A program made the translations under genes and the position numbers. From Candidatus Thorarchaeota archaeon (GTDB taxonomy: Archaea > Asgardarchaeota > Thorarchaeia > Thorarchaeales > Thorarchaeaceae), in contig JAFGAR010000028.1 of assembly GCA_016933575.1 (NCBI GenBank), forward strand, positions 32,001 through 96,000: a DNA stretch of 64,000 nt. Reading direction: 5' to 3'. Every line of letters starts with the position of its first letter. Positions within the stretch are counted from its first letter, which is position 1. Of the stretch, positions 1 to 10,106 are shown piece after piece. The notes under the pieces were generated by a model. The model saw nothing but the letters and a program-made list of their open reading frames with translations. It had not been told where the DNA came from and did not search any database.

Positions 1-197
1 AAGATTTTCGTACCAGCAACCCAGTTAATCAAGTACTTTGCAAAGTCGTTTATTTCGGGATGTGATTTTGACTGTTCCCATGCTTTGAAAGCTCCAATCC
101 CATTGGCTCTTGTAGAGTCCTTTTTGAAATAGAGCATGAGAACGCTACTTAATTCTAGCATCATGAATACAGCGATTGCAACAACAATGAGACTCAT
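1..197 (-). CDS. Partial hypothetical membrane protein (runs off the window start)
   Basis: Manual translation from ATG 197: MSLIVVAIAVFMMLELSSVLMLYFKKDSTRANGIGAFKAWEQSK..., open to the window edge; hydrophobic N-terminus; not in ORF track. Confidence 0.7.
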   Translation of the reverse strand, partial: MSLIVVAIAVFMMLELSSVLMLYFKKDSTRANGIGAFKAWEQSKSHPEINDFAKYLINWVAGTKI

Positions 198-424
198 TCC
201 TTATCTGTAGATAGTGGCACCATAAATATCTAGTCGTATTATTTGGTATGGATCTATCAAACTATAGTTATTTTTTTTTTGCCTCATCGCAAATTTAAAT
301 ACCAATGAGCTCTCGTATATTCTAAATTTAGCTAGAGAGATTTCCCCGAAAATAGGGATTGAAGAGATGTATGCTGTTCAAAACATTATACAAGTTCAGA
401 TTTGTGGGTTGAGAGATTCATTGG

Positions 425-1378
425 GTGATTGAGTTGAGTAAGCAGAAGTATATACGTCAGTATAGATGGTCCAACGTCTTGGCAATGATGCAAGGTGGAG
501 CAAAAGAGCTAAAAGAGTGTACTGATGATTTTAAAGGACGATTAGTTGTTATTACAGGAGCAACATCAGGAATAGGGTATGCAGCCGCAAGAGAGTATGC
601 TTCACATGGCGCGAATCTTCTTCTCATTAATCGAAGCGAAGAAAAATCAATTGCTCTATGTGACGAGATACGTCAAGAATTTCAAGTAGAATGCGATTAT
701 AAGATTGCAGATTTTTCGCGATTGACTGAAGTACGTAAAGTGGGAAAGGAAATTCTATACTCAGACCTAGACATCGATGTTCTTATCCATAATGCTGGAA
801 TTTATTCAACAAAAAAGATAATCACTGAAGATGGTAATGAACTGGTCTTTCAAATAGACTATCTTGGTTCTTTCGTGTTGAACTACATGCTTAAGGACAA
901 ATTGAAAGCACAAGGAAAAGCGCGTATCATCTTCGTAAACTCAGAAGGTCATCGCTTTGCTGTTTTTGGCATTGGTCTACATGATCCCACCTATGAAAAA
1001 CGTCGACATTCCGGTCTAGGAAGTTATGGTGTTGCGAAAGCAGCCCAACTTCTTTCAATGATAAAATTTGTTGAATATTTTGAGGGTAGCGGAGTTACTA
1101 TTAATGCCATTCATCCAGGAAATGTCAAGACTAATAGTGGTTCACAAAATGGTCGAATATATCGCTGGTATAAGAGAAACTTGATTGATCGTTCAGCGAA
1201 AGACCCACAAATATCTGCAACTGCATTGTATTATCTTGGCGTTTCAAAAGAGATTGAAGGCGTAAGTGGCAAGTTCTTCAATCTCACAAAGGAGGAAGAA
1301 CCTGCGCCTCCATCCTTGGACAGGGAGGTAGCAGAGGAGCTTTGGCATAAATCAATTGAGATGGCGGGATTAGAATGA
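425..1378 (+). CDS. SDR family oxidoreductase (retinol dehydrogenase-like)
   Basis: TGATSGIG Rossmann motif, HNAG, YGVAK (YxxxK), HPG. Confidence 0.9.
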   Translation: MIELSKQKYIRQYRWSNVLAMMQGGAKELKECTDDFKGRLVVITGATSGIGYAAAREYASHGANLLLINRSEEKSIALCDEIRQEFQVECDYKIADFSRLTEVRKVGKEILYSDLDIDVLIHNAGIYSTKKIITEDGNELVFQIDYLGSFVLNYMLKDKLKAQGKARIIFVNSEGHRFAVFGIGLHDPTYEKRRHSGLGSYGVAKAAQLLSMIKFVEYFEGSGVTINAIHPGNVKTNSGSQNGRIYRWYKRNLIDRSAKDPQISATALYYLGVSKEIEGVSGKFFNLTKEEEPAPPSLDREVAEELWHKSIEMAGLE

Positions 1379-2970
1379 GTAAAGACAACCATAGAACAAT
1401 TATTGTCGGCGGCGGAATGTCTGGAATAACCGCTGCAGTTTACTTAGCAAGAGCGGGTCATGATGTTCTCCTACTAGAGAAAAACAAGGAATGCGGCGGA
1501 CTCCTCAATTCATTTCAACGCGAAGGATTCACCTTTGATGCAGGAGCGCGATCAATTCTTAATGCTGGAATAATCCATCCAATGCTTAGAGAACTTGATA
1601 TTGAACTTGAATTTCTTGAAAGTCCAGTATCGATAGGAATCGAGAATGATATTATCAACCTTACGCCTGAGAATGCTGTAGATGAATATCGAAAATTGCT
1701 GGAAAGACTGTATCCAGAGAGTGCAGAGGACATCAAAGTGGTAATCTCAAAAATTGAGAGCATCATGAAAGACATGCAGACGATGTATAAAATTGATAAT
1801 CCAAACTTTCGGGAACAAAAAGATGGAGCCTATCTAAAACAGCTTCTAGGTTGGCTACCTGGATTCATCAGGGTCTTAGGTCGAATGGGCAAACAGAGCG
1901 AACCCGTTGAATCATATTTAGCAAAATTGACTTCAAATCAATCCCTAATTGATATTATAGCCCAGCATTTCTTCAAGAAGACTCCAACCTCGTTTGCCTT
2001 GGGTTACTTCTACTCCTATACTGACTACATCTATCCAAGAGGAGGCACAGGTGAGCTACCAAAAGCCTTGGTGCAGAAAATCATCGAGTTTGGTGGAAAA
2101 ATACAAACTGAAACAGAAATAACTGGAGTCAATCCTTCTGAGAAAGAAGTCAGAGACAAAAATGGTAACACGTATTCGTATGATACACTCATATGGAGTG
2201 CAGATTTAAAGACACTATACAGAATATTAGAATTAAATAATTTTGAAGAAAAGGATTCTCAAGAAATCCTGGAACAAAAGGAACTTCTTCTTTCAAAAAG
2301 AGGCTGTGATTCTGTATATTCATTATTTGTAGGTGTAGATGCACCTCTAGAGGAATTCAGCTCCAAATCAAACGGACATTTCTTCTATACACCATCGAAA
2401 CAAGGTCTTGGCGAAACGCACTGGTCTGAACTTGACTCTTTGATTGAGAATTTTGAAACGAAATCAAAGGATGATATTCTTCAATGGCTGGACAAGTACT
2501 GTCAATTAACAACATACGAAATTTCAATCCCTGCATTTAGAGATCCCACATTGGCTCCTAATGGCAAGACTGGTGTAGAGATAAGCATGCTATTCGAATA
2601 CGATTTGTTGAAGAAGGTTAAAGATGCAAATTGGTATGAAGAATTCCAATCTGAGGTAGAAAACCGTATGTTGGATGTTCTTTCCAATTCCATATATCCA
2701 AGTCTGAGAGATAAAGTACTCTTTCAATCATCATCAACACCACTCAGTATTGCTAAAATTGTAGGGACTTCAGAAGGAGCGATTGTGGGTTGGTCTTATT
2801 TATCACCTGTTCCTGTTGTAGACAATCTCAGAAAAATTCCTAGCTCCGTACTGACACCTATTCCTAATGTGTACCAAACAGGACAATGGGCCTATAGCCC
2901 AGCAGGTTTGCCTACAGCAATTATCACTGGTTGGAATGCTGCTCAGAAGATAATCAAGAAGAAAAAATGA
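1375..2970 (+). CDS. Phytoene desaturase (CrtI)-family FAD-dependent oxidoreductase
   Basis: IIVGGGMSG, EK..GG, FTFDAG, YPRGG, C-terminal TPIPNVYQTGQW; 4-bp overlap with the SDR gene. Confidence 0.85.
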   Translation: MSKDNHRTIIVGGGMSGITAAVYLARAGHDVLLLEKNKECGGLLNSFQREGFTFDAGARSILNAGIIHPMLRELDIELEFLESPVSIGIENDIINLTPENAVDEYRKLLERLYPESAEDIKVVISKIESIMKDMQTMYKIDNPNFREQKDGAYLKQLLGWLPGFIRVLGRMGKQSEPVESYLAKLTSNQSLIDIIAQHFFKKTPTSFALGYFYSYTDYIYPRGGTGELPKALVQKIIEFGGKIQTETEITGVNPSEKEVRDKNGNTYSYDTLIWSADLKTLYRILELNNFEEKDSQEILEQKELLLSKRGCDSVYSLFVGVDAPLEEFSSKSNGHFFYTPSKQGLGETHWSELDSLIENFETKSKDDILQWLDKYCQLTTYEISIPAFRDPTLAPNGKTGVEISMLFEYDLLKKVKDANWYEEFQSEVENRMLDVLSNSIYPSLRDKVLFQSSSTPLSIAKIVGTSEGAIVGWSYLSPVPVVDNLRKIPSSVLTPIPNVYQTGQWAYSPAGLPTAIITGWNAAQKIIKKKK

Positions 2971-2991
2971 ACTGAAAATGGAGAGATATTC

Positions 2992-3411
2992 ATGTCTGAA
3001 GTTGACAAACTAAAAAAAGGCGTTGGAAAACGTTTGATTCCTTGGGGAATCCTTAGTATCATAGTTGGACTCATAATGTATTTTGGTCTGCCAAATACAA
3101 TTCTGGGTGGTATTGGTCTTCAGGCACTGATCTGGGGATCAATTGATGTAATCATTGCATTATCCATTATCTATAAACAGAAGGAACAATCAGTCACGAA
3201 AATAGCCAAGACCGTATCAGGTAGTATAAAGGTGGATATTCTCGTTCAGATCATTGGACTTGTCATCATCGTGATATTCTTTCAAAATCCATTCTATATG
3301 GGTAACGGAATCGGAATCATCATTCAGGGATTCTTTCTCCTTCTTCTAGACAGTTCTTACCTGAAATCACTAAGGATTCTTGAAACAAAAATTGGAACTC
3401 AAGACACGTGA
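2992..3411 (+). CDS. Hypothetical membrane protein (about 4 TM)
   Basis: Four hydrophobic segments; GGAG RBS upstream. Confidence 0.75.
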   Translation: MSEVDKLKKGVGKRLIPWGILSIIVGLIMYFGLPNTILGGIGLQALIWGSIDVIIALSIIYKQKEQSVTKIAKTVSGSIKVDILVQIIGLVIIVIFFQNPFYMGNGIGIIIQGFFLLLLDSSYLKSLRILETKIGTQDT

Positions 3412-3472
3412 TTAGGAATTCAAATGAAAAGAAAGAGAGAAGTCCTATATTTCACATAGGTCAGCTGGTTTA

Positions 3473-3754
3473 TTATTTGCTAACCTTTTTTCGCTGAGCT
3501 GAGAGTCTTTTCATCAAGGCGATTGCATACGAAATTAGTAGCATTGCAAAGTATAACATCGTGATGATTGGGTTTGTGAAATTGGCTCCAATCAGGAAAC
3601 CGTGGACAAAAGCGAAGGTGAGTACAATATACATCAATCCGTGGACGACACGCCAGTACTTTTTCACTCTGTTTCGCAATAACCCAGCGAGTATGGCAAT
3701 ATATACCAAATAGAGTGCAGGTCTTCCAGCTAGGCTCCAGAAGGTATACCATGA
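3473..3754 (-). pseudogene. C-terminal remnant of a ferric-reductase-like (heme b) membrane protein
   Basis: WRVVH...FVHG His pair in TM helices; the 5' end runs directly into HEPN-derived sequence. Confidence 0.55.
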
Positions 3755-4060
3755 CATTCCTAAGTTTAACAAGCTCGACAAGATTACTACCGAGATTCTT
3801 GTCAGTTACACCATGGTTGGTAATGATTTCAATCGTATCTCTGTAAGTTTCAGGTGTACCCCAATGATGATGTGCTATAAGATGTGTGGCAATATCAATG
3901 ATAGATTGTGTGGCAATCTGAAAACTTCGTTCAATAGCAAGTTGCTAATCCTATTCTTTAGGAAATCTTCCTCTTCTATTGCAGCACCTGTTTTGAGAAG
4001 TTCAATCGAAGTCAGTATCTTGTCAAGCTTCATCTTTACTGATTGCTGGTCAAATGTCAA
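3742..4060 (-). pseudogene. HEPN/DUF86 toxin pseudogene (frameshifted, truncated)
   Basis: Frameshift near 3945; shifted frame reads QLAIERSFQIATQSIIDIATHLIAHHHWGTPETY...VKLRNVMVY, paralogous to 8125-8541. Confidence 0.85.
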
Positions 4061-4066
4061 AAGTTC

Positions 4067-4468
4067 TCACACTCCAATCGATTGCTTGAGGTAATTGTCG
4101 ATGTAAATATTCCAATCAGGATATCTTATCAAAACGTATTCTACATAAGTTTGCCAAACTTCCGTATCATGCGCATAAAGGACTCTTCCATAATGTAAAA
4201 CTCTAAATTGAAGGGTGAATGAAGCCATGTTCAATAATGTCACATCAATGTGGGGCTCTTCAGATGAGTCAAAAAGTGAAAGGACTTCACCGAATATAGC
4301 AGGATATTGATCTTCACTTTATGATACCCTAAAACCAATATCAATATCGCTTTGTGGATGAGTGGTTCCAGTTGCAGTAGAACCAAAAAGGACAATGAAT
4401 TCCAGATCATCACATAATACTTTTTTAATTCTAGCAACAATCCTTTTGAGCTTCCTGTCCGAACTCAT
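4067..4468 (-). pseudogene. MNT nucleotidyltransferase antitoxin pseudogene
   Basis: FIVLFGSTATGTTHPQSDIDIG...YPDWNIYIDNYLKQSIGV, paralogous to 8547-8957, with an in-frame TAA at codon 50 (4319-4321). Confidence 0.9.
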
Positions 4469-4546
4469 GCATCTCTTTCTCCCAAAGATTTGTCATTTAA
4501 ACAACATAGAATGTTAACATATAAAGTCGAAGGTAATTCAATCTTC

Positions 4547-4590
4547 AAAAGAAAAAGGGATGGAAAGAGGTGCGATTAACGCATTCTCCT
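4547..4590 (-). repeat. Cassette-boundary repeat copy R6 (hairpin plus pyrimidine tract on the minus strand)
   Basis: Plus strand AAAAGAAAAAGGGATGGAAAGAGGTGCGATTAACGCATTCTCC. Confidence 0.7.
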
Positions 4591-4616
4591 TCAAATCCAT
4601 GAACATAGTTGTTCGA

Positions 4617-5000
4617 TTATCTGCGATTGTGTTCTTCAGCAGACATATCAATTGTAGAATTTATCTCAACAATTGGGGTTCCAGCTTTTTCAATTGTGCC
4701 AAACTTACCAGATTGAAGTCTTATATTTCCCTTGAAGAGACCTACATATCCATTAGTTAGAGTGTAGGTTTCGCCTTCTTTCAGAGTATCAATAGTTTCA
4801 TTCCAGAATGGCATTTGAATTGTACCTGTAGAATCGCCAACTCTAGCATCCAAGACACGGTGTTTTTGACTGTCACTACGGGATTCGACTGTTCTTTCTT
4901 CACCAGTGCTCATGACCTTGAAGGTTATGTTTACACTTTTCATTCCGGGCTTCAGCTCGGCTATTGTAGCCTCGATGGCTTCGATCTTAAAATCTGTCAT
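4617..5000 (-). CDS. ssb: Single OB-fold single-stranded DNA-binding protein (crenarchaeal SSB/RPA type)
   Basis: IAELKPG..VN, VGDSTGTIQMPFW, NGYV..FKG..RL motifs. Confidence 0.85.
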   Translation of the reverse strand: MTDFKIEAIEATIAELKPGMKSVNITFKVMSTGEERTVESRSDSQKHRVLDARVGDSTGTIQMPFWNETIDTLKEGETYTLTNGYVGLFKGNIRLQSGKFGTIEKAGTPIVEINSTIDMSAEEHNRR

Positions 5001-5175
5001 AATGTATCACTCGCTCTTGCGAATTCAGGTCATTGAAAACTAGGGTAACTTCATGTGGAAGTACAAGAAGGTCGTTAATCCTCGATAAAACCAGTGTTAA
5101 AAGTTTGCATAGTTATTATGCCTGTACTACCGAGCTGCAGAAGTTTGCTTATAGTGTTATGTATCTTGCAGTAGG

Positions 5176-5198
5176 AAAAGAAAGAGGAATGGAAGGAG
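5176..5198 (-). repeat. Repeat copy R5 (truncated)
   Basis: AAAAGAAAGAGGAATGGAAGGAG, 23/23 identical to 8077-8099. Confidence 0.8.
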
Positions 5199-5296
5199 AA
5201 AGGAATCAAATCCCACTTGTAAAACTTCTATTATTGAAAACTAAAAACGCCGATTAATTAAAATAAGTAAACAGGTATAGAAAAAGGAGGAGGAGT

Positions 5297-7477
5297 GTGA
5301 TTTTGAAACAGCAAAATACTGTACTCAAGCTATTACTTGTATGCCTATTTCTCAGCTTTTTGTGGTCAAATATTCCAAGTTCAATTCAATTTGGTATATC
5401 GAGTCACATTAACAATCATGAAGATGACGTAAATGAATTCATAGGTTTTGATGGTGCTCTAATCTCAGCTGAAACTGAAGAAATCAAGATATCAAATCCT
5501 ATTTGGCTTAGGACATATGGTCCAAATTGGGCTACCAATAACATCGAAGATATTATCGAATGCGCTGATAGTGGATTTTGTATGTTAGGAACGCTAGGCA
5601 ATCCAAACGATGTAGGTTATTTTCCAGATGCAATTTTGTTGAAAACAGATTCGAATGGAAATCAGCTCTGGAATCGAACATATGGACGAGATGATATGGC
5701 CTACGAGTCGGTTCACAACGTTATCGAATGCTCAAATGGGGATTTCGCTTTTGTGGGATCACAGTATGTGTTGGGTACAGACGAATTTCACAGTGGATGG
5801 TTGGTTCGTGTTAATTCAAGCGGTTTTTTGACTTATAATATTACATATCCAGCTGCGCGCGAGTTAGTAGGAATTTCTGAACTTTCAGATGGAAACTTCT
5901 TCATATGTGGGATAACACCGGGAAGAGATGTTTTCATAATGAGAACAGATGAGAACGGGACCATTAAATGGAGCCTTCCATGGGAGCTATTTCTTGATGA
6001 TGAAGTCACAGATATGATTGAATACAGTCCCGGTGAGTTCATTATAGCAGGATATTCATATGATTCCAGTATGATGGTATGGATACCATTTCTATTCAAG
6101 ATCGACCAAGATTCTATGTTTTCTTGGATTAAATTCTATACACTCCTCGGAAGAGTGTATTGTAACTCAATTCTAAAGCTAGATTCAGGTGGAATCCTGA
6201 TGACAGGAATGGCAGTAACTAGCTCTATCGATTTATGGTTTTGCGAAATTGATGAGAATGGTAATTTCATCCGCGAGGCACGACTGCCTAATGAAATTAA
6301 TTATCCACCTAATGATATCATTCAATTAGAAGAAGGCGGTTTTGCAGTTCTTACTAGTTCTAATAGCATTAATCTTGTTAATGCGCAGTATGAACCAATC
6401 GGTAATATTCGATTCGATTCTATTACAGGTAATTCATTCATTCAGTCTGAAAATAAAGAGTTTGTAATTGGAGGTTCAATGAGAATCGAAAATAACTACA
6501 CTCTGACTATAATCAGAGAACCTTTCCTCTGGTGGAATCATTCTGTTATCAACATCCAAGCAGAATATTTGCAGTCGATTTCCCGTGACTTCAATGCTAC
6601 ATGCAGTCAGGGTATTGATAAGTGGACAGTGAATGCGACTGAGTTCTTTGATATCGATTCAAATGGAGTTCTTGGAAATAATTCAATTTTGAATGTTGGA
6701 ACATATCCTATCAAGATAATTGTGAATGATACTTTAGAAAACACTCTAATACAAGAATTTCTAGTAACAGTAGAAGACACGACTTCACCTGAGTGGGTGC
6801 AAGCTCCAGAAGACCAAATTTTAGAACTTGGTACAGATTTAAACTACTCTCTCTATGCTTTTGATCCATCAGGTATAGGAAGTTGGTCTATCAATGCATC
6901 AGGTCTATTTAGCATTAGTTCTGAGGGAAAAATTAACAATGTTAAGCCATTAGAAATTGGAACCTACGGATTAATGGTTACTGTTGAAGATATCTATGGA
7001 AACGATGTTAACGCTGAATTCACGCTTACAGTTACTGATTCAACTGCTCCGATATGGCTCATCTCTCCAAGCAATATTATAAAGAATGAGGATGAATCTA
7101 TACAGTTTTATTTTGTTGCGAGTGACCTTTCTGGGATAGATGCATGGATTTGTAATGACACTACTAATTTCCAAATTACTGATGAGTCATCGCATGATGC
7201 AAGTTCATGTCTATTTACAAATGCGACCATATTGAATGCTGGGTCCTATGGTCTCAACCTAACTGTAACTGATTTATGGGGTAATAAGATCTCATCAATT
7301 TTCAGAGTTACAATAATTGAGATTCCAGAAATATCTGTATCTACAACGACTACTTCTACATCAACCACATCACAGACATCGGATGAATTTCTTCAACCAG
7401 TTGTACTTCTTGCAGCTGGTTCTGGTTGGATTGCTACAATCTTTGTAATCATCATCATGATGAAACGACGAACCTGA
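5297..7477 (+). CDS. Membrane-anchored surface protein: beta-propeller-like repeats plus three Ig/cadherin-like domains
   Basis: Signal peptide; repeated D.NG...W..TYG motifs; repeated V.D..GN and DTT.P.W; Thr-rich linker; C-terminal TM ending KRRT. Confidence 0.8.
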   Translation: MILKQQNTVLKLLLVCLFLSFLWSNIPSSIQFGISSHINNHEDDVNEFIGFDGALISAETEEIKISNPIWLRTYGPNWATNNIEDIIECADSGFCMLGTLGNPNDVGYFPDAILLKTDSNGNQLWNRTYGRDDMAYESVHNVIECSNGDFAFVGSQYVLGTDEFHSGWLVRVNSSGFLTYNITYPAARELVGISELSDGNFFICGITPGRDVFIMRTDENGTIKWSLPWELFLDDEVTDMIEYSPGEFIIAGYSYDSSMMVWIPFLFKIDQDSMFSWIKFYTLLGRVYCNSILKLDSGGILMTGMAVTSSIDLWFCEIDENGNFIREARLPNEINYPPNDIIQLEEGGFAVLTSSNSINLVNAQYEPIGNIRFDSITGNSFIQSENKEFVIGGSMRIENNYTLTIIREPFLWWNHSVINIQAEYLQSISRDFNATCSQGIDKWTVNATEFFDIDSNGVLGNNSILNVGTYPIKIIVNDTLENTLIQEFLVTVEDTTSPEWVQAPEDQILELGTDLNYSLYAFDPSGIGSWSINASGLFSISSEGKINNVKPLEIGTYGLMVTVEDIYGNDVNAEFTLTVTDSTAPIWLISPSNIIKNEDESIQFYFVASDLSGIDAWICNDTTNFQITDESSHDASSCLFTNATILNAGSYGLNLTVTDLWGNKISSIFRVTIIEIPEISVSTTTTSTSTTSQTSDEFLQPVVLLAAGSGWIATIFVIIIMMKRRT

Positions 7478-7508
7478 AGATGAAATGAAAATTAGATAAA
7501 AGCAAGAG

Positions 7509-7547
7509 AAGAAAGGGGGATGGAAGGAGTGTGACAATTGCACTCCT
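7509..7547 (-). repeat. Repeat copy R4
   Basis: AAGAAAGGGGGATGGAAGGAGTGTGACAATTGCACTCC, with a GGAGTG/CACTCC stem. Confidence 0.8.
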
Positions 7548-7555
7548 TTGAAGTA

Positions 7556-7990
7556 TCAAAAAGTCTGTGTAGAGTAAGGACCTCTATACTCCATAAAAAA
7601 GACAATGCCTGCCAAGATTGCCACGACTCCAGCTATGATTGCTGGAGAAGTTGCTATGACTCCTAATGATCCCTCAAGTTGCCCTGCGAACATGAATGCT
7701 ACGAGTATTGTAATGATTCCAAAACACACGCCAAAACAAGGAGTTCCCTGGATTCGTTGGCCTGTGTCTTGTCGAATTTCTACATCACCATAGGAACCTA
7801 CTGTTCTGAAGACTGCCATCATACTCCCACTACGAGCAAACAATGCTCCGATGATCATTACAAAAGCAAAGACTCCGGAAGCCATAGCAGCTATTCCATC
7901 TCCAAATCCCACAATGCTAATTATGAGTTGGATAGTGCAGAGGAAGAATGCAACCACAAAGAGCAATGCACTTTTCATTGAACCAGCCAT
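7556..7990 (-). CDS. Hypothetical 4-TM membrane protein
   Basis: Four hydrophobic helices; repeat R4 lies immediately after the stop. Confidence 0.7.
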   Translation of the reverse strand: MAGSMKSALLFVVAFFLCTIQLIISIVGFGDGIAAMASGVFAFVMIIGALFARSGSMMAVFRTVGSYGDVEIRQDTGQRIQGTPCFGVCFGIITILVAFMFAGQLEGSLGVIATSPAIIAGVVAILAGIVFFMEYRGPYSTQTF

Positions 7991-8076
7991 TCAAAAGACC
8001 ACCAATCGTTTTGTACTAAAAAAGAAAAGCTTCCACTCTAATGAATATATTCCTACAAATATATCCCATATAATCT

Positions 8077-8120
8077 AAAAGAAAGAGGAATGGAAGGAGT
8101 GCGACAGGCTCACCTGAGCA
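8077..8120 (-). repeat. Repeat copy R3
   Basis: AAAAGAAAGAGGAATGGAAGGAGTGCGACAGGCTCACCTGAGCA. Confidence 0.8.
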
Positions 8121-8124
8121 GATT

Positions 8125-8541
8125 TCAGATGAACTTCAGAATTGCATCAGCAAACAATTTTGCATCAATGATAATTGCTATTGCACTTTGATATACTATG
8201 GTGGGGTCTACGGCTATATATAGATGAATAAGTATGTTCCTCAGTTTAACAAAATCAATCAATCGGTCTGCGAGGAGAGAATCAATAATCTTGTGATTGG
8301 CAATTATCTTTACAGCATCACTATATGATTTTGGAGACCCCCAATGATTATGTGCTACTAGATGAGTACAGATATCGATAATTGCTTGAGCGATAATCTG
8401 AAGATTCCTCTCTATTGCACCTTGGAGTAGCTCATCTTTCAAATATTGCTCTTGAGTCATAGTTTCAATGTGTTTGATACGAGTGACTCGTTCGAGAATG
8501 ATATCTAATCGTGCTTTCACAACTAAGGGATCTACAGCCAT
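8125..8541 (-). CDS. HEPN (DUF86) RNase toxin
   Basis: AIERNLQ and RNILIH (Rx4H) motifs; probable start MAVDPL at 8541, just after the MNT stop. Confidence 0.9.
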   Translation of the reverse strand: MAVDPLVVKARLDIILERVTRIKHIETMTQEQYLKDELLQGAIERNLQIIAQAIIDICTHLVAHNHWGSPKSYSDAVKIIANHKIIDSLLADRLIDFVKLRNILIHLYIAVDPTIVYQSAIAIIIDAKLFADAILKFI

Positions 8542-8546
8542 TGAAA

Positions 8547-8957
8547 TCACGCCCCTAGAGATTGTTTCAAGTAGTTCTGTATGTAGTACTCCCAATCTGG
8601 ATACCTCACAAGAACGTATTCTTGAAAACAGGGCCAAACTTTGTCATTCTTCGTGTATAGAAGTTTACCATCACGAACCACTCTGTACTGAAGTGTGAGA
8701 TCTGCAAGATTAAGAAGAGTAACGTCAATCTTCGGAGAATTCTCCTTATCTACGTAATCAAAGAGGGAGAGCAGATCACCAAAGATTGTCTGCAATTCCT
8801 TCTTCGGATTGCTTACTTGAACGCCAATATCAATATCACTCTGTGGATGGGTATTTCCTGTAGACATAGAACCAAAGAGAACTATGAAGTCAACTTGTTC
8901 ATCAAGTTCATTTCTTATCTGTGTGACGATATCATCTAATAGCTCGTCTTGATTCAA
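8547..8957 (-). CDS. MNT minimal nucleotidyltransferase antitoxin
   Basis: LFGSMSTG...SDIDIG (GSx10DxD); directly upstream of HEPN. Confidence 0.9.
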   Translation of the reverse strand: MNQDELLDDIVTQIRNELDEQVDFIVLFGSMSTGNTHPQSDIDIGVQVSNPKKELQTIFGDLLSLFDYVDKENSPKIDVTLLNLADLTLQYRVVRDGKLLYTKNDKVWPCFQEYVLVRYPDWEYYIQNYLKQSLGA

Positions 8958-9008
8958 AGAGTCACGTTCCTTAGCATTTCATATACAGTAATTGAAATAT
9001 TCTCGCTG

Positions 9009-9029
9009 CATATAAACTCGAAGGTAATT
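9009..9029 (-). promoter_or_regulatory. Putative TATA-containing promoter of the MNT-HEPN module, duplicated at 4518-4538
   Basis: CATATAAACTCGAAGGTAATT vs CATATAAAGTCGAAGGTAATT (20/21); reads TTTATATG on the minus strand about 50 bp before each MNT start. Confidence 0.6.
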
Positions 9030-9040
9030 TGCTTGCTGAG

Positions 9041-9082
9041 AAAAGAAAAGGGAGGGAAGGAGAGTGACAAGCACACCCGAGC
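9041..9082 (-). repeat. Repeat copy R2
   Basis: AAAAGAAAAGGGAGGGAAGGAGAGTGACAAGCACACCCGAGC. Confidence 0.8.
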
Positions 9083-9089
9083 AATGTTG

Positions 9090-9659
9090 TCAGACCCGGT
9101 CTATCAATTTCTTTGACTCAGAATCTTTCAGAAATTGCTCAAGTTTATCGAGAATACCTAGCATTTCACATGTGGAGCGTATATACTCAAAATCGAAACT
9201 TTCTGAATTTCTATTTAAAATGCCAAGAGCATCTCTAAGATCTTGCTCTCCTTGAAATAGGATTTTATTAACATAAGTGTCTTCAATAGAACCAATCCTA
9301 ATAGATGTGCCAAATAGATTGACATCGATAGCTCTTTCAAGTGTCATCTTATCAAAAGCTGAATTTACACCTTGTATGTCAAGTCTAAGTAACGTATCCT
9401 TGAAGAAAATAGTACTATGAGATTTCTCTGCGAAAGCTGCTCTGATATCGGTTGCAGAGGATGAAAACCCTCTTGAATTCAGAAATTGTGTGAATGTTGA
9501 AATTTGTTCATCTTCTATTTGCAATATAATGTCAATATCTACGGTAGTTCGAGGGACACCATGGTACATTACTGCTACTCCACCAACGATAACATACTCT
9601 ATCTTATTCTTATTGAGAAATTCACATACTAATTTGAGAATCTCTGGAAATTCTTCCAT
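9090..9659 (-). CDS. Nucleotidyltransferase, DUF6036/AbiEii-like (putative toxin)
   Basis: VIVGGVAVMYHGVPRTTVDIDI motif; K....EQDLRD near the C-terminus. Confidence 0.8.
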   Translation of the reverse strand: MEEFPEILKLVCEFLNKNKIEYVIVGGVAVMYHGVPRTTVDIDIILQIEDEQISTFTQFLNSRGFSSSATDIRAAFAEKSHSTIFFKDTLLRLDIQGVNSAFDKMTLERAIDVNLFGTSIRIGSIEDTYVNKILFQGEQDLRDALGILNRNSESFDFEYIRSTCEMLGILDKLEQFLKDSESKKLIDRV

Positions 9660-9812
9660 CTATCTATCACCTGCTATTCGTAGAGCTAACGCAGACAATT
9701 TCAGGCCCATAATTAGTGTTTCAAGACCGGTATATTTTCTAGCTTCGATTGCTGTTCTTATCTGATCGAGGTCTCTCCTGTGCTTCACTTGATCTGCAAT
9801 CGAGCTAGCCAT
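9660..9812 (-). CDS. 50-aa protein, putative partner/antitoxin of the downstream nucleotidyltransferase
   Basis: MASSIADQVKHRRDLDQIRTAIEARKYTGLETLIMGLKLSALALRIAGDR*; its TAG abuts the next ATG (TAGATG); not in ORF track. Confidence 0.7.
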   Translation of the reverse strand: MASSIADQVKHRRDLDQIRTAIEARKYTGLETLIMGLKLSALALRIAGDR

Positions 9813-9871
9813 ATCATTCCCACACACCACTAGTAACTACTCTACTCATATATTCTACTATTCATAATTTG

Positions 9872-9909
9872 AAAAGAAAAGGGAGAGAAGGAGTGCGACC
9901 AGCGCACCC
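9872..9909 (-). terminator. Repeat copy R1, probable terminator of the hdr-mvh-vhuU operon
   Basis: Minus strand GGGTGCG-CTGGT-CGCACTCC hairpin, then TTCTCTCCCTTTTCTTTTC. Confidence 0.65.
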
Positions 9910-9920
9910 TTGCGGGGTGT

Positions 9921-9957
9921 GTCAAGCCCGGCTCAGTTCTTTACGCCGGACCTTCAT
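9921..9957 (-). promoter_or_regulatory. Eukaryote-type SECIS element
   Basis: AUGA-AGGUCCGGC-GU-AAAGA-AC-UGA-GCCGGGCUU-GA: AUGA/GA core, 9-bp helix plus 2 bp, apical AAA; about 80 nt after the in-frame UGA. Confidence 0.85.
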
Positions 9958-10106
9958 CCGCCGCCAGTCACGAGCTCCTTCCGGACTATCTCGCGGCCAT
10001 CCTCATCGACAACGACAAGGTGTGCGCCGCATGATAGTCAGCAGTCATAGCACCGAACCACCATTTCCAGGAGGTTCAGTAACCCTTCAGGGATTTCTTC
10101 TGACAT
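9954..10106 (-). CDS. vhuU: Selenoprotein VhuU, separately encoded C-terminal peptide of the [NiFeSe] hydrogenase large subunit
   Basis: MSEEIPEGLLNLLEMVVRCYDCULSCGAHLVVVDEDGREIVRKELVTGGG*; UGA at 10038-10040 sits at the Ni-ligand position of the L2 motif; the upstream large subunit lacks that motif. Confidence 0.92.

Follow-up and report, generated by a model that had tools for sequence, protein, structure and literature searches.

The window, a stretch of 64,000 nucleotides from a Candidatus Thorarchaeota genome, holds the selenoprotein gene vhuU and, behind it, a row of accessory genes parted by copies of a single repeat. The features of this row are given below from vhuU outwards, with the repeat copies numbered R1 to R6.

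9954..10106, minus strand: vhuU, selenoprotein gene of 50 codons in which an in-frame TGA encodes Sec, the anchor of the array (sequence; kept at every orthologous locus)
9868..9953, minus strand: vhuU 3' UTR, with SECIS region, hairpin a, hairpin b/c and pyrimidine tract (profile match 10117-9865, positions 2-255)
9868-9917, minus strand: R1, the proximal full-length repeat copy, in the vhuU 3' UTR (nhmmer; hairpin -10.8 kcal/mol)
9660..9830, minus strand: module 1, first gene, a small 56-aa ORF overlapping at its end with the beginning of the gene that follows (ORF list)
9090..9659, minus strand: module 1, second gene, a DUF6036-type nucleotidyltransferase (Pfam PF19502, E 3e-07)
9036..9110, minus strand: R2, cast-off vhuU 3' end with the 3' half of the SECIS, hairpin region and tract (profile positions 178-253)
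8547..8957, minus strand: module 2, MNT nucleotidyltransferase, the antitoxin (Pfam PF18765, PF01909)
8125..8544, minus strand: module 2, HepT/HEPN RNase, the toxin (Pfam PF01934, E 2.9e-28)
8074..8126, minus strand: R3, kept from hairpin a onward, hairpin degraded (profile positions 198-251)
7556..7990, minus strand: module 3, membrane protein with four TM segments (ORF; orthologues within the arrays of G002, G021 and G017)
7506..7555, minus strand: R4, hairpin intact, z -2.9 (profile, folding)
5297..7477, plus strand: module 4, 726-aa surface protein, inverted (ORF; weak Big_13 match)
5174..5224, minus strand: R5, pyrimidine tract only, adjoining the 5' end of the inverted gene (profile, sequence)
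4617..5000, minus strand: module 5, Ssb-like OB-fold protein (Pfam PF21473, E 2.4e-17; NCBIfam SSB)
4544..4596, minus strand: R6, hairpin intact, -15.9 kcal/mol, z -2.9 (profile, folding)
3741..4468, minus strand: module 6, dead MNT-HEPN pair (in-frame TAA at MNT codon 50; HEPN frameshifted)
3473..3781, minus strand: putative membrane ORF of 102 aa that overlaps the remains of the HEPN gene (ORF list)
3426..3461, minus strand: candidate repeat remnant, a short hairpin plus tract CTTCTCTCTTTCTTTTC, beside the DUF6992 stop (by eye: tract position of L035:15824-15875 in G041)
425..3411, plus strand: inverted block of SDR, FAD oxidoreductase and DUF6992 genes (ORFs, domain matches)

An earlier note on this DNA had described six same-facing copies and a weak remnant at 3426, in an array spanning 3426-9909. 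A profile of the six copies, run with nhmmer, recovers all of them at the coordinates listed (9036-9088 for R2) and adds a seventh at C156:31586-31630, 414 bp to the left of the window, followed by a pseudo-Lrp gene, an SSB gene and an Lrp gene. The seven matches lie within 10.3 kb in a single orientation, and beyond them the 3.47-Mb assembly gave no match with E<0.01. A pattern search allowing up to 3 mismatches returned four copies against none in 100 shuffles. Since the motif is confined to the vhuU locus in both profile and fuzzy scans, it is not a generic genome-wide terminator, the outcome that the earlier note had named as speaking against its claim. The identity of R3 and R5 over 23 of 23 bases was reproduced. 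The element at 3426 escapes the profile, but its position was matched by eye to a full copy in G041 and it is taken as a putative true remnant of the repeat. An array thus does occupy the span first described, but it is longer, as it includes the inverted DUF6992-FAD oxidoreductase-SDR block and the seventh copy. A separate candidate for a cassette-end motif, AATTACCTTC, was rejected, with 8 matches genome-wide against about 6.6 expected.

The modules between the copies are those that had been described from the sequence: small ORF with nucleotidyltransferase, MNT-HepT, four-TM protein, inverted surface protein, Ssb-like protein and a dead MNT-HEPN. The 56-aa ORF has no Pfam or NCBIfam match, and its pairing with the nucleotidyltransferase is kept in at least nine relatives. 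Module 2, with adjacent MNT and HepT/HEPN genes, has the arrangement that defines type VII toxin-antitoxin systems of the MNT-HepT kind. The suspected enrichment in toxin-antitoxin modules was borne out, as MNT-HepT occurs twice in the window and the arrays of relatives hold DUF5615/PIN-like and other MNT-HepT modules. The inverted surface-protein module also sits between repeat copies in G024 and G042, and the SDR-FAD oxidoreductase-DUF6992 block lies at a depth in the array that varies by species. The 102-aa membrane ORF has a paralogue at C156:11396-11659 and a relative in G041. Conserved TATA-like boxes (AATATATGAG, TTTATAT) are found between repeat and module, and terminator-like repeats part the modules; the modules appear to bring their own promoters. 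Elsewhere in the same genome, no arrays surround the other SSB, nucleotidyltransferase or TM4 paralogues, and the second vhu operon, on C57, has neither vhuU nor the repeat. The proposed ageing of the array with distance from vhuU holds for the most distal toxin-antitoxin module, which is dead, but not for the repeat copies, whose profile scores in the window show no steady loss of quality with distance.

The repeat is vhuU's own 3' end, consisting of part of the SECIS, a hairpin of 5-7 bp and the tract CTCCTTCCATCC...CTTTTC. Throughout the genus, as in metagenomes, each vhuU orthologue has the same succession of SECIS, hairpin and tract behind it. On a profile of the vhuU end, the 3' edge is constant across copies (positions 242-255) whereas the 5' edge is variable. 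Internal copies in relatives extend back to positions 90-117, immediately past the His29 codon, and therefore hold about 20 vhuU codons in addition to the SECIS (L041, L024, L034, L045 and L051). Judged from these sequences, the internal copies are former ends of vhuU that have been cast off. An attC site can be dismissed, because the repeat is homologous to the vhuU 3' UTR and no R''...R' pair (boxes RYYYAAC and GTTRRRY) overlaps any copy on either strand. A known RNA family was likewise rejected, as the whole window has no Rfam match at the gathering threshold.

In this genome a pyrimidine tract follows 10.9% of long ORFs compared to 6.1% of random 90-mers, with many cases of hairpin plus tract, and this combination is the usual predicted terminator shape. 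The hairpins of R1, R4 and R6 have energies of -10.6 to -15.9 kcal/mol; folding is weak in R2, R3 and R5. Pair counts lend the hairpin modest support, with 85.7% of cells able to pair and one pair switching between UA (11) and CG (9). RNAalifold on the mixed alignment returned no consensus structure, and a bacterial-type terminator scan makes no call on the repeat. We infer that the repeat acts as a putative terminator of the module in front, and that hairpin and tract would be retained in cast-off copies because both terminate that preceding module.

Gene content and order behind vhuU differ in nearly every species of the genus, so that constant gene order among relatives, which would have spoken against capture, is not what is seen. 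The direction of growth can be read from three loci. In G001 the order is vhuU, Lrp, a cast-off copy and SSB, with one module next to vhuU. Compared to G001, G012 has an extra 1.8-kb module adjoining vhuU, flanked by a 26-nt duplication. Metagenome contig L065 is 99.87% identical to G012 across 5.6 kb downstream and holds a further 4.15 kb (two modules) beside vhuU, and 83 nt of the old UTR are duplicated at the flanks of this insert. This nested series shows that new modules enter at the vhuU-proximal end and that older ones are pushed away, the anchor-proximal entry known from integrons and the serial capture that the earlier note had proposed. In the L065 event, the mismatches of the cast-off copy all fall within its first 22 nt (5528, 5532, 5546); on the left, the flank shows no difference over 911-1319 and the new sequence begins at 1320, a pattern that looks like a signature of homologous recombination. 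The two resolvable insertions have left boundaries within the UTR, one in the SECIS loop and one in the hairpin, and outside the coding motif. The module of small ORF and nucleotidyltransferase joins the repeat at four different positions across genomes (156, 178, 179 and 216).

A search for the responsible enzymes agreed with the first observation that no recombinase lies in the window. Neither a Pfam scan of 19 cargo proteins nor an NCBIfam scan of 9 (7 of them among the 19) found a recombinase or nuclease domain, and no nuclease domain occurs in the modules that adjoin vhuU or the long cast-off copies. Among the 28 genomes of the genus, PF00589 and PF00239 are each present in 8, and both are absent from the array-bearing G012, G042, G017, G004, G005, G002 and G003. 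The genome studied here has a single PF00589 match, on another contig (C189), and no Y1 transposase. Tyrosine and serine recombinases and Y1 transposases were rejected as array-linked, none being associated with the arrays, although the absence of a recombinase is weak evidence because the genomes are incomplete MAGs (71-99% complete). The repeat has no match in IMG/VR viral contigs, and the idea that viruses carry it was rejected.

The explanation that we favor, as probable though well short of secure, is that modules stack behind vhuU by casting off terminator-bearing gene ends, with homologous recombination spreading them and an illegitimate join founding each junction. Incoming DNA would insert directly behind vhuU and supply a fresh vhuU end together with one or a few genes that have their own promoters, so that the old end would remain, cast off, on the downstream side of the new genes. 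Repeated entry would build a one-directional stack with the newest module beside vhuU and older ones farther away, and the cast-off copies would shed their 5' parts (codons, SECIS, hairpin a) while hairpin and tract stay. Modules would most likely be spread, lost and reshuffled among strains by ordinary homologous recombination, for which the conserved vhu operon could serve as one flank, on the left, and any of the repeat copies as the other. A new junction would first be made by a probably rare, one-sided illegitimate join anchored by homology to vhuU. Homology-facilitated illegitimate recombination, in which a homologous anchor is combined with an illegitimate join, is known from bacterial transformation. 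It would give a result like that at vhuU, with insertions by the anchor, variable right junctions and partial duplication of the end; it is not known to have built ordered arrays or to occur in this archaeal group. Against the favored explanation, the longest copies have 5' edges that cluster at 90-117, and a number of short ones start at the same GCTGGTCGCA. These clustered edges could be defined cut or crossover points of a further enzyme. The other arrays with different repeats in this genome and the poor hairpins of three copies in the window also count against it.

A dedicated site-specific system, in which a trans-acting recombinase would use a small inverted repeat (GGTGYG-N5-CRCACY) and the tract as core site and would insert and excise circular modules in the manner of IntI at attC and attI, appears unlikely. 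Every copy is indeed a direct repeat, a common left edge in the hairpin loop, (G)CTGGTCGCA, is found in several of the truncated ones, and the 26-nt duplication at the G012 insertion begins at this very edge. Tract variants also move together with the module downstream of them, unlike the variable 5' part, and further arrays elsewhere in the genome point to a mechanism of a general kind. However, one and the same small-ORF/nucleotidyltransferase module has four junction positions, and the 83-nt duplication in L065 lies elsewhere and has mismatches that resemble homologous recombination. The absence of attC-type pairs, of the repeat from viral contigs, of tyrosine and serine recombinases from many array genomes and of Y1 transposases from this one also weighs against such a system.

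Somewhat more doubtful still is a homing-type replacement of the gene end, whereby a nuclease would cut the CxxH-coding site of vhuU and repair would copy a donor tail with its cargo, the old tail staying in place. The precedent is provided by WHO elements at FBA1 in Torulaspora and Lachancea yeasts, where each integration replaces the 3' end of the conserved gene (Coughlan et al. 2020, PMC7282813). Repeated integration of these elements creates a cluster behind FBA1, and each unit encodes its own endonuclease (PMC7282813). Both systems replace a gene's 3' end and form clusters behind the gene, and the row of cast-off ends at vhuU resembles WHO clusters. Moreover, the longest cast-off copies begin past the His29 codon of C-U-L-S-C-G-A-H in 5-6 independent cases. 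However, no endonuclease domain was found in the modules beside vhuU or beside the long cast-off copies, the cargo consists of unrelated accessory genes, and the UTR boundaries of both resolvable insertions do not fall in the coding motif. It is very improbable that nothing was captured and that the motif is a conserved local terminator or regulatory element in an array made by local duplication and ordinary rearrangement: hairpins with pyrimidine tracts are common at gene ends here and paralogues lie close by (two MNT-HepT modules, two SSB genes), but the exact motif is found at the vhuU locus only, vhuU codons and pieces of the SECIS survive in internal copies, the MNT paralogues are merely 53% identical, and relatives differ by clean module-sized gains beside vhuU.

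Stacking behind vhuU also has a parallel in integrative elements, among them genomic islands and tycheposon-type islands, which stack in tandem at the 3' ends of tRNA, tmRNA or protein genes, carry or borrow an integrase and usually measure many kb. As in these stacked elements, the direct repeats at vhuU are displaced 3' ends of the target, and newer insertions adjoin the intact gene. The vhuU units are unlike them in being only 0.4-4 kb long, with no integrase in the scanned cargo and none in many of the genomes.

In behavior the array resembles integrons, including the archaeal integrons and the attC clusters without integrase, or CALINs (Ghaly et al. 2022, PMC9668308). These, too, are one-directional rows of mostly one- or two-gene units; as at vhuU, new units enter beside a fixed anchor, toxin-antitoxin units are common and close relatives differ. 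However, integrons have intI beside the array, or for CALINs at least somewhere in the genome, and none was found here. Their repeats are attC sites, imperfect inverted repeats that bound each cassette and form recombination hairpins, whereas those of the vhuU array copy the 3' end of a host gene, lack R''/R' boxes, look like terminators and have variable junction positions. Integron cassettes are promoterless and share a common Pc, while the vhuU modules appear to have their own promoters. The earlier description of the array as integron-like is thus apt for its behavior but not for its mechanism or membership, the repeat being the vhuU 3' UTR and predicted terminator and not a dedicated attC-like site. 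The site behind vhuU collects genes as an integron does, with no integrase and no integron-type sites seen.

The locus offers a view of how accessory genes are gained and reshuffled at a single place in the chromosome of an uncultured Asgard lineage, with no recognizable integrase. It has also preserved a rare recent event, in which two populations nearly identical downstream differ by one 4.15-kb insertion, so that both the growth direction and a recombination signature can be read. A literature search on gene-cassette arrays in Thorarchaeota found no description. Other arrays with different repeats are present in the same genome and hint at a general, perhaps dedicated, process. We raise, only tentatively, the idea that Thorarchaeota have a general gene-collecting process, free of integrases or using a new kind of enzyme, that docks modules at the terminators of particular conserved genes, among them vhuU, and yields ordered, swappable stacks. 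Asgard archaea would then have an equivalent of the integron that works by another mechanism. If general, the process would give genes a new path by which to move among the archaea most closely related to eukaryotes. Arrays of this type could wrongly pass for integrase-less attC clusters. Their repeats also break MAG assemblies, and many contigs stop within 2 kb of vhuA.

The repeat that separates the accessory modules (a gene or small gene group between successive copies) lies on the minus strand, the sense strand of the anchoring selenoprotein hydrogenase gene vhuU, and is built of one or two short hairpins and, after them, the tract CTCCTTCCATYCCYCTTTCTTTTC. Four copies at three or fewer mismatches were found by pattern search, compared with none in 100 shuffles. 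A profile built from the six copies recovered all of them (4544-4596, 5174-5224, 7506-7555, 8074-8126, 9036-9088 and 9868-9917), together with a seventh at C156:31586-31630, 414 bp to the left of the window. All copies share one orientation, as the earlier note had read from the sequence alone; its list of the intervening modules also agreed with ours, and the distal MNT-HEPN (MNT-HepT) toxin-antitoxin (TA) pair that it had called dead was found broken. There was no further match at E<0.01 in the 3.47-Mb assembly (215 contigs), and the motif, being confined to the vhuU locus, is not a generic genome-wide terminator. The G+C content is ~37% in the region 1-9900, versus 46-50% in the hydrogenase operon and 42% in the genome. 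Left of the window, at C156:28770-31470 (L001:16770-19470), the seventh copy is followed by an Lrp/AsnC-type regulator, another Ssb-like gene (69% identity to the one at 4617-5000) and a second, broken Lrp gene; in three relatives (G001, G012 and G003), Lrp and SSB form modules bounded by repeats. A second VhuD-VhuG-VhuA set is present at G000:C57:234506-237140, with a VhuA 70% identical. The profile had no match there, no vhuU ORF appeared in a three-frame translation of the first ~420 nt downstream, and the only reading of that region is an unannotated ORF on the other strand.

The proximal copy adjoins the anchor gene:
9954-10106, minus strand, vhuU, with the proximal repeat copy directly 3' of the gene and its SECIS

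The same succession of SECIS, hairpin and tract follows vhuU in 22 loci (13 species genomes of the genus and nine metagenome contigs). When all loci were searched with a profile spanning vhuU to the end of the tract, the 3' edge of internal copies was constant (profile positions 242-255) and the 5' start was widely variable, falling into five groups: 90-117, just past the His29 codon, with ~20 codons and the entire SECIS kept; 149-161, near the stop codon; 173-184, in the SECIS 3' half; 192-204, at hairpin a; and 206-216, at GCTGGTCGCA. In the window, R2 retains the SECIS 3' half and R3 begins at hairpin a. Because internal copies share a 3' edge and reach back into the SECIS and vhuU codons, the repeats are former vhuU 3' ends and not a separate type of site. 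The hairpin is apparently maintained, with 85.7% of hairpin cells paired and one pair alternating between UA and CG. Hairpins with a pyrimidine tract are common at gene ends in this genome, and the shape of the repeat fits a terminator; such a role, presumed from sequence, would explain why hairpin and tract survive in cast-off (displaced) copies while codons and SECIS decay. Promoter activity of the modules is likewise putative. One long cast-off end (~22 codons, SECIS and repeat; L024:2539-2693, G024:C279) lies directly upstream of an hdrC-hdrB-hdrA-vhuD row, in front of an hdr/vhu operon and not behind vhuU. At L026:8296-10300 (G002:C2), a 632-aa gene precedes a set of repeat copies with SECIS remnants and the 4-TM and peptidase modules. 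In this genome, which is 93% complete, a VhuA orthologue was not found, and the array has apparently lost its anchor.

Three related genomes can be ordered as a nested series. In G001, vhuU is followed by Lrp, a cast-off end and SSB. In G012 one extra module adjoins vhuU, two inverted genes of 1.8 kb in all, flanked by a 26-nt duplication. Over 5573 bp downstream, the metagenome contig L065 matches G012 at 99.87% identity; next to vhuU it carries 4.15 kb more, comprising a surface protein of 1022 aa, one repeat copy and the nucleotidyltransferase module. What was the UTR in G012, from near the stop codon on, is internal in L065. The series shows that new modules enter at the vhuU end and displace older ones outward, bearing out the serial capture proposed in the earlier note.

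As that proposal would predict, gene order is not constant among relatives. Among the genomes of the genus (28 species in GTDB; all genomes compared are MAGs), the content behind orthologous vhuU differs in nearly every species and metagenome contig, with at least 16 different modules at the first position. A common pool recurs in varying orders:
small ORF + DUF6036 nucleotidyltransferase
several MNT-HepT types
4-TM protein
inverted surface proteins
SSB
S8 peptidase
inverted AMP-ligase
membrane-protein pair
Lrp-type regulators
DUF5615/PIN-like gene
inverted SDR-FADox-DUF6992 block

For example, the nucleotidyltransferase module precedes MNT-HepT in the window and follows it in G009 and in L045, the closest metagenomic relative (VhuA 92% identical), and the inverted SDR-FADox block comes after the first module in G041 and G004 and after the sixth in the window. 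Many contigs break off within ~2 kb of vhuA, as expected where repeats abound and strains vary. Two populations of a sister lineage (VhuA 77% identical) carry the UTR and lack repeats; a third has, 3' of vhuU, a related nucleotidyltransferase gene followed by 26 nt copied from the UTR of its own vhuU. The repeat thus tracks the local vhuU sequence. One metagenome population (L051:10585-14972) has a metabolic unit of three genes (VhuD-like; formate-dehydrogenase-like, 675 aa; FrhB-like, 434 aa) that is bounded on one side by the full vhuU UTR and on the other by a long cast-off vhuU end. These genes sit at the far end of the island in other species; core-looking redox genes can thus be part of the stack.

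How modules enter is best explained, in our preferred account, by homologous recombination, through which they would spread, be lost and be reshuffled, combined with rare one-sided illegitimate joins that would give rise to new cast-off copies. In the recent L065 event, identity to G012 on the left (911-1319) gives way to new sequence in the SECIS loop, from 1320 onward; on the right, the first 22 nt of the cast-off copy contain three mismatches, and the remaining 5.5 kb three more. This is the pattern expected if a double crossover with a donor array had occurred, its left exchange in vhuU and its right exchange in a repeat copy. Proximal UTRs align into two hairpin-region forms, CACCCCGCAAGGGTGCGC.GGTCGCA and AACCCTGCTCGGGTGTGCT.GTCACA (for example, window 9895-9917 versus L022:14590-14612). 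Their distribution does not track vhuA or vhuU similarity: between G012 and L065 the vhuU coding sequence is identical and the form is opposite, and G009 has a hybrid, which points to frequent recombination within the UTR. Within vhuA, L065:496-910 has 21 mismatches to G012 (L040) in ~410 nt, followed by 410 identical nt; vhuA itself is a recombination mosaic between populations.

A dedicated enzyme acting at the repeat, or a homing nuclease, is still a live rival to homologous recombination with illegitimate joins, as 5' edges cluster just past His29 and at GCTGGTCGCA, and further arrays with different repeats exist in the same genome (C139; C38 and C56). However, no recombinase or nuclease domain was found in any cargo protein scanned, and the junction of one and the same nucleotidyltransferase module with the repeat falls at four different positions across genomes, which argues against a single fixed crossover point. 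PF00589 and PF00239 each occur in only 8 of the 28 genus genomes, and neither was found in seven array-bearing MAGs. The window's own genome has one tyrosine recombinase, on a contig other than the array's, and no Y1 transposase; the repeat was not found on IMG/VR viral contigs.

The locus had been called integron-like. It resembles integrons in anchor-proximal entry, small units and TA enrichment, but lacks the defining intI and attC. Integrons and integrase-less attC clusters have been reported to be enriched in Asgard MAGs (Ghaly et al., PMC9668308); the vhuU repeats have no attC features and are not such sites. Structurally closest are the yeast WHO elements (PMC7282813), with their repeated 3'-end replacement, and tandem islands at tRNA genes, although the vhuU locus is without the nuclease of the former and the integrase of the latter.

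Finally, the second array in the same genome (G000:C139:750-7686) has some eight copies, all on one strand, of another hairpin-plus-tract repeat (…CAGGTA…TACCTG…GAGCCACCCTTTTCATTTTTCA), which separate a row of small pairs resembling antitoxin + PIN, or RelE/ParE; this array is rich in TA modules. The dispersed direct repeats at G000:C38:5938-9603 and G000:C56:109-5157 are 70-146 nt long and read as the 3' end of a protein-coding gene (…MNDMRLHAVNLYADQETLVPEPEAADG). An MNT of the vhuU array in G007 shares 40% identity with a relative in the C56 array.
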